Sequence record: PP359570
Source of the DNA: Escherichia phage ALITA
DNA: 64,000 bases
Strand: one strand, 5' to 3'
The notes beneath the pieces are model-generated. The model worked only from the letters and a program-made list of their open reading frames with translations. It did no database searches and was not told the origin of the DNA. Each line of letters starts with the position of its first letter. The first letter of the stretch is position 1. The position numbers were made by a program, and so were the translations under genes. Positions 16,649-62,273 of this stretch are shown piece by piece.

Positions 16649-16814
16649 CCTATGCCGGACACATAGGCGGCTAATAATAACGCAACTACACACCCCACAT
16701 AATAACCATCAACGATGGTTATTATTTGTGTTTATGTAGCTTGCAACAATTGCAAGCGCAACAATATACATGGTATATTGTATTCCCTTACATTGTTGCG
16801 GTGCGTTATTATTA
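16649..16814. other. nested inverted-repeat structure (outer 12-bp stem enclosing hairpins); candidate structured ncRNA or origin element
   Basis: gcctatg-ccggaca-cataggc; aataaccatc-aac-gatggttatt; gcttgcaa-caa-ttgcaagc; outer gctaataataac ... gttattattagc; approx. Confidence 0.4.
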
Positions 16815-17117
16815 GCTAATGTTTAGAACATTGGCTATAATATAAGCTGCATATAATAAACTATGCAATAATAAACATGGTGAATAATGACACCGATGAT
16901 CATAATGCGCCACCCTCCAGGGGGCGCTATGTAAACACAAAGAAATCTTTCTTGTCAAGAAAATATTGCCACTATTGCGCAAAATTATTTTTATCTGAAT
17001 AGATGATTTTTCATACTATTGCCCCTATAACATACCTCATTTGTTGAGCCTACTTTCTTAAAAGCGCAATAAATCAGAATTATCTTGATTTTTAGGGCGT
17101 TTTATAGTACAGAAAGT

Positions 17118-17142
17118 ATGCAAATGATAATCATTATCAGCT
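17118..17142. promoter_or_regulatory. Fur-box-like motif (closest to consensus)
   Basis: cAAATGATAATCATTATCag: 16 contiguous bases identical to the Fur consensus core; approx. Confidence 0.45.
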
Positions 17143-17299
17143 ATCTTCCACGGGTAGCACTATTTCACGCCAGATCATTTCATTTGGCAAGGTGTATATA
17201 GATGTTTAGACTTGCCAAGCCATTGATTTACTTAGAATTTATCTGTTTTGTTGTGAGTAATACCTTTCTTACTCAGAAAATAATCAAAAGTCTTATAAG

Positions 17300-17341
17300 T
17301 CATTGAATGATAATACAAATGATAATTATTCTCATTGATAT
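17300..17341. promoter_or_regulatory. Fur-box-like motif pair
   Basis: gAATGATAATacAAATGATAATTATTCTCATTgata; approx. Confidence 0.35.
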
Positions 17342-17695
17342 TTGAGGGGGACGGTCGGCAGAAATCGGGGGGCGCTGAAAATCGCGTTAAGCACCTCTCG
17401 CAAGCGAGCAGTATTTTGCGGCAAGTTATTGATATTATTGACTTTACGCTTATGAAAAGGGGGTGTGTCGAAATAAATCGGGTATACCGGAAAATTTTTG
17501 TGGCATAGATATTTATTTGTCTATATTATGTACAAAGGGGTGTATTAAAAATAATAGGTATATATAGAATAATTGATAGGGAAATCCTATACTAATCCCT
17601 CCATTAATGATGTTTCTATGTTGCTGTTATTGTAATAGATGAAAAGACGCTGTATGATGTGTGGCATGAAACGTAAACTTATAAAGGAGTCTGAT

Positions 17696-18065
17696 ATGTG
17701 TGTCCCTCTTAGCAGTCCACTGCTGTTAGAATTTTACAAAGCATGGATGGAAGATCATTCCTCAATGCATCGTGAGAATGTTGGTTTGTGTATTTGCCTT
17801 ATGGATTATCTGGCAACCACTATGTCAAAGAAAAAAAAAACCTACGCAAGAAGATATAGAACATTTCAAGATGGTTCGTAGTAAAACGCTGGAAGAGATG
17901 AAATTGCAATTCACGTGTGCTGGGCTATCCTCCTTCCTGCCCTTTAATGATGACCTTCTGTGTTATGAAGATGAAGGTAAGAAACATTCTTGCCATACTA
18001 ACCCAGAGAGATTGCAGTGGGTGAAAGATCGTATCGAAGATGCAAATAATGTTTGCATTGGATAG
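17696..18065 (+). pseudogene. paralogous-family gene split by a frameshift at an A10 tract (track ORFs 17639..17881 and 17772..18065)
   Basis: N-part LLEFYKAWMEDH...GLCICLMDYL and C-part EEMKLQF...PFN...ERLQWVKDRIED align with intact paralogs at 19847 and 20839; frames differ by one nt across A10 at 17831-17840. Confidence 0.5.
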
Positions 18066-18135
18066 AAATGCCTGTACACTGTGTTCCATAAGATATGCAA
18101 TATCGCGCATAACAAACTACTAATGAGAGGTGTAA

Positions 18136-18453
18136 ATGAGAACTTTATCTTTGTATATTGATCGTAACTCCATTCGAGAAATGCGAGATGTACAACAGGA
18201 TTATGAATTCTACCCGGAAATTTGTGAACGCTATGAAACTATTCTTAATTCTGTAGAAGACCCAGATACCAGTGAAACAGGTGCTTCCCACTTACTGTGG
18301 ATGTTGAATGAAATTCAGGATGGGTGTAATGATATGTCTGAAACCAAACGCCATCGTTGGCTAGGCTATATTCAGGGTGTTATGGTTATGAAAAACCTTA
18401 TTACAGTTGATGATGAACGTAACGCTACACGCCCCATCTTTAATGGAGCATAA
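18136..18453 (+). CDS. hypothetical protein (105 aa)
   Basis: ORF-track ORF; agaggtgtaa SD. Confidence 0.5.
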   Translation: MRTLSLYIDRNSIREMRDVQQDYEFYPEICERYETILNSVEDPDTSETGASHLLWMLNEIQDGCNDMSETKRHRWLGYIQGVMVMKNLITVDDERNATRPIFNGA

Positions 18454-18454
18454 C

Positions 18455-18670
18455 ATGAAAAGCATTCAGGTGTGTATTGAAAATAATTGTGGTTATCTGG
18501 GGTTGACACATGTTGCTTTCCCTCTTATGTTAGATGCCGATATCGCTTACAGCGGAGTTGCTTATGTGTCATTCAAGACAATGAGCCAAGTACCTGGCTG
18601 GAAGTGGGAAGTAGTTGATGTTGTTGAAGGAGAAGATTATGTTTTCCTTCCACACGAATATATTGTTTAA
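18455..18670 (+). CDS. hypothetical protein (71 aa)
   Basis: Track ORF 18407..18670 trimmed to ATG after ggagca SD (MKSIQVCIENNCGY...). Confidence 0.45.
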   Translation: MKSIQVCIENNCGYLGLTHVAFPLMLDADIAYSGVAYVSFKTMSQVPGWKWEVVDVVEGEDYVFLPHEYIV

Positions 18671-19846: not shown

Positions 19847-20215
19847 ATGCAAGAGAATAGTAAAGTGTGTAACATGAAAAGCAGCCCCTATTTGCTACAA
19901 TTTTATGAGTGGTGGTTAGAACAAGAAGATACAAACTTTAGCAAAAAGCATTATGGTCTTTGCACGTGTCTTGTAGACTTCTTATACAATATTGCTTTGA
20001 TAAAAGATGTTGAGAATGTAGCAAAGCTCCAATCCTCTGTACGAGAGGAAATGAAGGAACAATTTAAGAAAGCGGGTTTGAACCATTTACATCCGTTTAA
20101 TACGGATTTCTCGCACTACTTTACGGAAACAGAACTAGGCATTGCACACCTTAATAAAGAACGTGTACAATGGGTGATTGATCGTATTCGTGATATGGAG
20201 GAATACAATGGTTAA
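19847..20215 (+). CDS. paralogous-family protein, intact copy (122 aa)
   Basis: LLQFYEWW...GLCTCLVDFL...PFN...ERVQWVIDRIRD; aggagaag SD. Confidence 0.55.
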   Translation: MQENSKVCNMKSSPYLLQFYEWWLEQEDTNFSKKHYGLCTCLVDFLYNIALIKDVENVAKLQSSVREEMKEQFKKAGLNHLHPFNTDFSHYFTETELGIAHLNKERVQWVIDRIRDMEEYNG

Positions 20216-20838: not shown

Positions 20839-21423
20839 ATGAGTAAAATTATACCAAGCAGTTATGAATTATTGCAGTTTTATGTATATTATATAGACTG
20901 GGTTAATAGATCGAATGTTAAAGACAATGCGATGTTTAGTAAAAACATCTGTTTAACAGAAAGTATCTTCCGTTACTGGCACACAGGTAGAAAGTGTACA
21001 CACAGTGAAGCTATGCGCATTGTAGGTGAATACCTGGAGCAATTGCAAAAAGCAGAGCTACCTGTCCTTCACCCATTCAATGAATCTAAAGAAGAATTAG
21101 AACAAGAGTGTAGAGAAGGTAAGTGCCATTTGAATGAAAAACGTATCGAATGGGTGAGGCAACGTTTAGCCGATGCAGGAAAGACTCCTAGTGACTCTGA
21201 CTATACGTGGTATGATGTAGAGGGTTTAGTTCAAGGTTTTGAGGCTTGTGCTATAGATAATACAAACTTTGCCAAAGTTTTATGCGAGGCTTATGACCTG
21301 GCAGATAAAATCCGAAATCACGGATGGAAACAAGAGCATAAAGAATCATATGAACGCCTTGACAAGATTTTCAAACAGATCTATTCTAACCACAAGAAGA
21401 TGTTCCAAATGGAGGATGTGTAA
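20839..21423 (+). CDS. paralogous-family protein with C-terminal extension (194 aa)
   Basis: ELLQFYVYY...PFN...EKRIEWVRQRLAD; ggagaggtc SD. Confidence 0.55.
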   Translation: MSKIIPSSYELLQFYVYYIDWVNRSNVKDNAMFSKNICLTESIFRYWHTGRKCTHSEAMRIVGEYLEQLQKAELPVLHPFNESKEELEQECREGKCHLNEKRIEWVRQRLADAGKTPSDSDYTWYDVEGLVQGFEACAIDNTNFAKVLCEAYDLADKIRNHGWKQEHKESYERLDKIFKQIYSNHKKMFQMEDV

Positions 21424-21495
21424 TGAAAGAGATTATTTTGAAGGGCATCGTTACGAAGTTCCAGAATACTGTCTTTGGATAAAACGGGAGGAATA

Positions 21496-21663
21496 ATGCA
21501 AACATTTTTTATCGACAAGTTCAATAAAAGTATGAACACGTGGATGGCAACATTCACTATGCAATTTGCGTCATTTAAAGAAGCTCAAGAATGGTGCGAT
21601 CAACACAAGGATTTTGATTTTTACTATCAAGTTAATGCAAACCTTTCTCCAGAGGAGAAATAA
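21496..21663 (+). CDS. hypothetical small protein (55 aa)
   Basis: Track ORF 21475..21663 trimmed to ATG after gggaggaataa. Confidence 0.4.
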   Translation: MQTFFIDKFNKSMNTWMATFTMQFASFKEAQEWCDQHKDFDFYYQVNANLSPEEK

Positions 21664-61736: not shown

Positions 61737-62273
61737 TTAATAGTTAACACGTTTAATTTCAACACCATAGGATGCAATAAAATTTTCCTTAGCTAACATA
61801 TATTTACCAGCAGCAGAAGGATTTGATGTATGAACATAGATAGTTTTAAGAGCATCCCATTCACCAGCGTACAACATACATTCTACATCTAAGAACGCAT
61901 GATAGCCTTCTTGATCTTCCCCAAGATCATTATCGAAGTGTATTTCTGAGATATTATTGAAATTATCTTCATCTGAAACAAAAGATGACCAATCCCCAAA
62001 AGATTTTAACCAAATGGCATCCTCATAACCATAATCTTTAGGATCTCTTAAATCGTCTAACCAAAGAATTTTAGCCACTATCAACCCCCCTTCCTGTTTC
62101 TCTTCTTTCCAAGTTTTACCTTTATCTACCAATTGCTTAGAAACAGCAAATCTTTCTCCATTGACATAAAACAGATAAAGAATAAAGGATTTTCCTATAG
62201 TTACAGTATCTACTACTTCTACACGCTTTACACCTTGCATGTATTTGGCTTTACCTGAATAAATAAGGAACAT
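61737..62273 (-). CDS. hypothetical protein (178 aa)
   Basis: ORF-track ORF; conserved-looking ILWLDDLRDP, HFDNDLG, VHTSNP blocks of unknown family. Confidence 0.5.
   Translation of the reverse strand: MFLIYSGKAKYMQGVKRVEVVDTVTIGKSFILYLFYVNGERFAVSKQLVDKGKTWKEEKQEGGLIVAKILWLDDLRDPKDYGYEDAIWLKSFGDWSSFVSDEDNFNNISEIHFDNDLGEDQEGYHAFLDVECMLYAGEWDALKTIYVHTSNPSAAGKYMLAKENFIASYGVEIKRVNY

Follow-up and report, generated by a model that had tools for sequence, protein, structure and literature searches.

Two overlapping ORFs on the + strand of Escherichia phage ALITA, 17639..17881 (80 aa) and 17772..18065 (97 aa), meet across a run of ten adenines (A10), and they raise the question of whether a single gene has been broken in this phage, has been misread in its genome sequence, or is deliberately expressed in two frames. 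The earlier note on this locus had offered all three explanations—pseudogene, sequencing or assembly error, and programmed slippage or frameshifting—and we weighed them in a window of 64,000 nucleotides of the sequence record PP359570, to which all positions refer. ALITA is a phi92-like Justusliebigvirus with a GenBank record of 147,398 bp, and the window is ~97% identical to phi92-like E. coli myophages. Our searches found no second ALITA assembly, and our literature search found no paper on this phage. The answer at which we arrive is that the lesion is most likely an ordinary, isolate-specific homopolymer frameshift (less likely a run overcounted by one base) and not an evolved recoding signal, and that it is probably the result of a recent expansion by replication slippage, in ALITA only, which inactivated a redundant accessory gene or made it leaky.

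The A10 run has CAAAG directly 5' and CCTACG directly 3', and the + strand around it reads ...ACT ATG TCA AAG AAA AAA AAA ACC TAC.... The frame of the downstream ORF is +1 relative to that of the upstream ORF, and translation upheld the earlier claim that the frames differ by one nucleotide at 17831-17840 and that nine A's would fuse the halves: once one A is taken out of A10, the reading frame from ATG 17696 stays open for 122 aa (...MSKKKKPTQEDIEHF...). This ATG is the biologically relevant start, the same start (MCVPL...) being annotated in relatives. Read as it stands, the gene encodes an N-terminal fragment with 48 native residues (helices 1-2 of the structural model described below, plus KKKK) followed by 13 out-of-frame residues, TYARRYRTFQDGS, and ending at TAG 17879-17881. 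The C-terminal part ends at TAG 18063-18065 and encodes helices 3-5 together with 14 of the 22 family-invariant residues. GenBank lists the two pieces as separate hypothetical proteins, the second one from ATG 17871, which lies 8 nt 5' of the stop of the N-terminal fragment and has no Shine-Dalgarno sequence before it. Both fragments are exact matches to ALITA proteins, and ALITA alone carries the two, while no exact match was found in a collection of 15 billion proteins for the 80-, 75-, 97- and 95-aa ORFs or for the repaired 122- and 121-aa proteins.

Table. Coordinates of the split gene, its A10 tract and its two paralogs in the window.
Feature	Position	Strand	Evidence or remark
Shine-Dalgarno sequence AAGGAG	17684..17689	+	6 nt 5' of ATG 17696; read from sequence
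N-terminal fragment CDS, 61 aa	17696..17881	+	GenBank WWP17808.1; family HMM E=3.8e-20
A10 homopolymer, frame-break site	17831..17840	+	Orthologs: A6 in 22/27, A5G in 4/27, A7 in 1/27
C-terminal part in the +1 frame, PTQEDIEHF...NNVCIG	17841..18065	+	Family HMM E=1.7e-36; structure model
C-terminal ORF from an internal Met start, 64 aa	17871..18065	+	GenBank WWP17809.1, exact match
Intact paralog, 122 aa, Phi92_gp006 type	19847..20215	+	43% identity to the repaired protein over its whole length
Intact longer paralog, 194 aa, Phi92_gp010 type	20839..21423	+	Profile match (phrog_27059/phrog_2510); alignment

That the two ORFs are the N- and C-terminal parts of one protein, as had been proposed, is confirmed by homology. 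The halves match the family HMM separately, and the protein obtained by joining them matches phrog_2510 across the whole domain (residues 7-119, E=1.1e-22), shares 97% identity with P0003, an intact ortholog, and contains 24/24 of the columns that are invariant among the three paralogs of the window, the family-invariant motif set comprising SS..L..FY..W, CL, E..Q..A.L, PFN, and H.N..R..WV..R..D. A search of the six-frame translation of the window with the family HMM matched exactly three loci, namely the split gene and two intact paralogs 2-3 kb downstream, and all three match phrog_2510. The claim that the repaired protein aligns end to end with both paralogs stands for the shorter one but not for the longer one, in which only the N-terminal ~125 aa align (29% identity). 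In a nine-member alignment made without ALITA, there are 22 invariant columns, 14 of which lie downstream of the frame break. In a profile search of 1.84 billion representatives, we found 806 clusters at E <= 1e-3, mostly proteins of 100-125 aa, some of them fused to other domains, with one fusion carrying DUF551, the sole domain found in the multi-domain relatives. The family protein had no match in Pfam, NCBIfam or PADLOC, and no sequence relative in the PDB. Modeled confidently with AlphaFold (pLDDT 86, pTM 0.79), P0003 has five helices, and SKKKP, the motif encoded at the tract, lies in the loop between helix 2 (41-53) and helix 3 (60-83), where the family alignment is richest in indels and varies most in length. 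On this model, the frameshift is predicted to remove helices 3-5 and, with them, 14/22 invariant residues. Around the gene, a promoter and terminator scan of 16000-18500 performed no better than on shuffled sequences, and a tRNA search found none in the window.

The comparison with relatives defines the nature of the lesion. We compared the orthologous locus in 27 relatives, 26 of them phage records and the last a contig from a metagenome. Here the tract is A6 (AAAGAAAAAACC, encoding SKKKP) in 22 loci and A5G in four, in all of which it is free of any break, and A7 in a single one, with no A8, A9 or A10 among the 27. One ORF is thus kept across the tract in 26/27 relatives, a few of which are altered only at the 3' end, and SKKKP is found in 13/13 of the members read of the 90%-identity protein cluster. 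Across isolates, tract lengths are therefore 5, 6, 7, and 10, and ALITA differs from the A6 of its relatives by +4 A, not by +1. Since the relatives carry A6, the ALITA lesion is an insertion of four A's, which contradicts the ancestral A9 that the earlier note had implied. The one relative with A7 is Enterobacteria phage ECGD1 (KU522583.1; L048, 210-392), which shows the same +1 frame break and in which only a 60-aa N-terminal piece, ECGD1_018, is annotated; slippage may have struck there independently, or else the record contains a sequencing error. A metagenome scan returned 32 loci, one of them homologous—a 147.7-kb Justusliebigvirus contig (L023), with A6—and exact-pattern scans of IMG/VR for the tract, with A10 or with any length, gave no matches.

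Could the tenth A be a miscall? The sequence does not decide between A10 and A9, and a true A9 would be an in-frame change (+3) that adds one lysine to a surface loop and leaves the gene intact, an explanation that we consider unlikely, though it is the main rival to a real frameshift. It would account for the perfect 122-aa protein obtained with A9, for the position of the added residue in a loop that is already length-variable across the family, and for a C-terminal part without decay, and the A7 of ECGD1 could also be a +1 miscall. Moreover, the tract is the only A/T run of at least eight in the window (the census gave 38 A6, two A7, 44 T6 and two T7, with none of 8-9), and being the longest homopolymer by three bases it is the spot least reliable on any platform. 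Such a run is not improbable from composition alone, since dinucleotide shuffles of the window gave 3.0 A10 expected vs the one observed. For A8 windows, there were three observed, which overlap and all lie inside the A10 tract, vs 24 +/- 7 expected in dinucleotide shuffles, and this strong depletion of A/T homopolymers of at least eight would fit selection in ALITA against runs on which slippage is likely.

What argues against a miscall is the soundness of the remaining assembly at homopolymers. We carried out an indel census of the window vs Eryne, Paula and AV123 at 1-40000, and vs AV123 alone at 39646-64000. Most indels within the ORFs of these relatives whose length is not a multiple of three occurred in divergent stretches, as pairs that cancel each other. 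Just two in gene bodies lacked such a partner, +AAAA at 17831 and -G at 21437, the latter in a 14-codon stub of a gene lost by a ~1.2-kb deletion. Hence, over the ~64 kb compared, +AAAA at 17831 is alone in shifting the frame, without compensation, in the middle of a gene that is intact in all other respects; the remaining homopolymer length differences are located at gene ends or outside ORFs of at least 60 aa. As this census found no other homopolymer-linked mid-gene frameshift in an intact gene, homopolymers are not a general weakness of the assembly, and the distribution of these differences looks like that of real polymorphism filtered by selection rather than of random basecalling error. 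In addition, a miscall of one base cannot explain the +4 A difference, no fewer than three of the added A's are real in any case, and the depositors retained the split by annotating two CDSs.

The census brought out a few other differences. The deletion at 21437 was considered as a second homopolymer error and rejected, as it sits within the stub of the gene removed by the 1.2-kb deletion. This deletion deprives ALITA of ~1.2 kb present in Eryne, Paula and AV123, spanning most of the homologs of Phi92_gp011, gp012 and gp013; in the alignment, position ~26338 of the relative (L005) is followed directly by ~27569, with the junction at ~21458-21465 (in 21423-21500), where an 8-nt overlap suggests microhomology. 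Two single-base differences vs AV123, at 62087 (+C in a C6 run) and 46554 (-T), lie at the ends of small minus-strand genes and would change a few terminal codons or the choice of start site.

The third explanation that had been offered, that the break serves a purpose, fares much worse. In its two forms—functional recoding that yields 61-aa and 122-aa isoforms at a set ratio, or a hypermutable run that turns the gene on and off through A9, A10 and A11—it seems to us very unlikely. Phase-variable homopolymers do occur in Campylobacter phages, which counts for the second form, and the tract has been struck twice independently, in ALITA (A10) and in ECGD1 (A7), both times by +1 modulo 3, which provides weak support for reading it as a contingency locus. 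However, two events at one tract are also expected of a mutational hotspot in a neutral gene. It counts further in favor of a functional site that slippage on A runs of at least nine is well established in E. coli, and that IS elements and Thermus dnaX put such runs to productive use (PMC1088944, PMC5009743). Against this, conservation of a slippery motif and of a two-frame arrangement is lacking, 26/27 relatives having a short tract of A5-A6 that is unbroken; the gene is dispensable (see below); and the 13-residue out-of-frame tail bears no sign of selection. Nor are there stimulatory elements: no GGAGG or other Shine-Dalgarno-like sequence was read upstream of the tract, and RNA folding revealed no stimulatory structure in the 51 nt upstream (z=-0.08), the 60 nt downstream (+0.90) or the 101 nt spanning it (-1.30). 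In the 0 frame, the run is followed by ACC, which is common in E. coli and does not cause pausing. Restoring the frame takes a +1 shift (at the RNA level, -1 nt or +2 nt), which a classical -1 shift on A-AAA-AAG would not supply. Conservation of the two-frame arrangement, as expected of a recoding site, is lacking here, so that the programmed option finds no support, and with neither conservation nor stimulators found, the site does not belong with programmed slippage or frameshift sites. Among the three explanations of the earlier note, the absence of conservation and of RNA structure, the ACC codon and the requirement for +1 thus speak against this one, and leave error and pseudogene.

With the sites of programmed slippage—the A9 of Thermus thermophilus dnaX, the A/T runs of IS elements, and Shigella mxiE—the ALITA tract shares the type of motif and its length, but in those systems both the sites and the two-frame arrangement are conserved among homologs and the products have distinct functions, whereas the ALITA break is unique. 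With the -1 site of E. coli dnaX (A-AAA-AAG), it shares an AAA/AAG lysine run read by a shift-prone tRNA-Lys, but it requires +1 and not -1, and unlike dnaX and prfB-type +1 sites it has no downstream hairpin and no upstream Shine-Dalgarno sequence, and its A-site codon is neither slow nor a stop. As in the contingency loci of bacteria and the poly-G tracts in receptor-binding genes of Campylobacter phages, a mutable run within a coding sequence switches the frame and isolates differ. However, contingency tracts are long in most members of a population or species, while the normal state here is a short, stable A6, and the ALITA gene has no known role in host interaction. It is a long shot that Justusliebigvirus populations use the A tract of the lysine loop as a hotspot on/off or dosage switch. 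If they did, slippage of polymerases on A9-A10, in DNA and in RNA, would make expression of the full-length protein stochastic, and a lytic phage would hedge between presence and absence of a host-interaction factor.

By analogy, the locus would rather work like the poly-A/T frameshift pseudogenes known from bacteria and endosymbionts, including E. coli reporters and those of Buchnera and Blochmannia (PMC1088944, PMC5009743). Like these, it has a sense-strand A run of at least nine, located at the exact point where the frame changes in an otherwise intact ORF, in a host with a slippage-prone E. coli polymerase, so that the frame could be restored by gain or loss of A in the RNA only. Runs of nine A/T are prone to slippage and under negative selection in coding sequences (PMC1088944), and they give rise to mRNAs with up to six extra nucleotides (PMC5009743). 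There are two main differences. First, the ALITA case concerns one lytic phage isolate and a dispensable gene. Second, -1 or +2 nt is required, outcomes that are less favored in E. coli, in which slippage grows exponentially with the length of an A/T run and mostly inserts one nucleotide (PMC5574713).

A last alternative is that the split gene is viable as it is, the C-terminal part being made from ATG 17871 by termination-reinitiation at the overlapping TAG 17879-17881, and the halves reassembling or acting independently. The closeness of this ATG to the stop of the N-terminal fragment and the annotation of both pieces in GenBank are in line with it, but ATG 17871 is without a Shine-Dalgarno sequence, the 64-aa piece begins inside helix 3 so that PTQEDIEHFK is lost, and the arrangement occurs in no relative other than the mutated ECGD1, where the N-terminal piece alone is annotated. 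We regard this possibility as extremely improbable.

Several observations bear on the age of the lesion and on how easily the gene can be lost. Besides the tract, the ALITA gene has a single private substitution (18052) vs all 27 homologs and no further stops or indels, which indicates that the tract change is very recent. In phage alia, the gene is absent between the same conserved flanks, five other records match the flanks only, at 50% coverage, and several relatives have an additional tandem copy. Together with the two paralogs that are intact in ALITA, this makes the split gene appear expendable and redundant. Among public proteins, P0099 and P0163, which are kin of 20839..21423 and of the tandem second copy, are truncated or frameshifted paralogs, P0099 diverging after ...EYLEQLQK, which suggests that this paralogous family is often inactivated across genomes.

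The locus is also variable in its layout. Many relatives (among them L001, L003, L006, L041, L050) have two tandem paralogs of 378 and 369 nt, the second ~49% identical, others (L002, L004, L043) have one copy, and in a third group (Eryne, Nernie, ESCO8 and others) a 360-nt gene is accompanied by an ORF of 156 nt at the junction. ALITA, AV123, UAB_1 and EC.P2 have a single 366-nt gene, the last ~10 codons of which (RIEDANNxCIx) match the end of the second tandem copy, and which looks, from this sequence match, as if it were the product of recombination between two tandem copies. Immediately 5' of the split gene, ~1.6 kb (~16000-17690) are without a convincing ORF, and the left direct terminal repeat of Salmonella phage UAB_1 (1..343) maps to ~17046-17389, the gene there being gp001; the split gene may therefore be the first gene beside the physical genome end.

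The recent expansion by replication slippage that we favor would have unfolded as follows. The gene product is presumably a small, all-helical early accessory protein. In the ALITA lineage, the lysine run AAG-AAA-AAA in the SKKKP loop between helices 2 and 3 would have expanded from A6 to A10, most likely through strand slippage during DNA replication, with every added A raising the mutability of the run. The net change of +1 nt puts helices 3-5, the C-terminal two-thirds of the protein, out of frame, leaving the 61-aa fragment as the predicted main product, and the early stop would amount to a functional knockout or strong knockdown. The phage would tolerate the lesion because the gene is dispensable and redundant, with two paralogs downstream, tandem copies in some relatives and absence from others. 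Early genes of these phages are transcribed by the host RNA polymerase. Going by the slippage literature, the latter could produce a minority of A9 or A12 transcripts in which the frame is restored incidentally, and a rare +1 ribosomal slip on AAA-AAA-A might offer an alternative route; either way, the rescued full-length protein would have one or two additional lysines in its loop. This leak is expected to be small, because slippage in E. coli is mostly +1 and a transcriptome-wide study found no frame rescue at pseudogenes (PMC5574713).

Some observations sit less comfortably with a slippage-driven loss of this gene. A change from A6 to A10 on a branch that is otherwise nearly unchanged is a large jump for stepwise slippage, and an undecayed C-terminal part fits an intact or still-selected gene equally well. 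Since rescue needs -1 or +2 nt vs the +1 that dominates in E. coli, leaky expression may be very low.

This case reveals no new mechanism, and its value lies mostly in annotation: WWP17808.1 and WWP17809.1 are fragments of one gene, and should be flagged as frameshifted or as a pseudogene, or else corrected if the tract is A9. Beyond this, the locus provides a modest natural illustration of the speed at which a short A run of lysine codons can expand in a dispensable phage gene, and by marking the family as non-essential it can guide the choice of loci for phage engineering.
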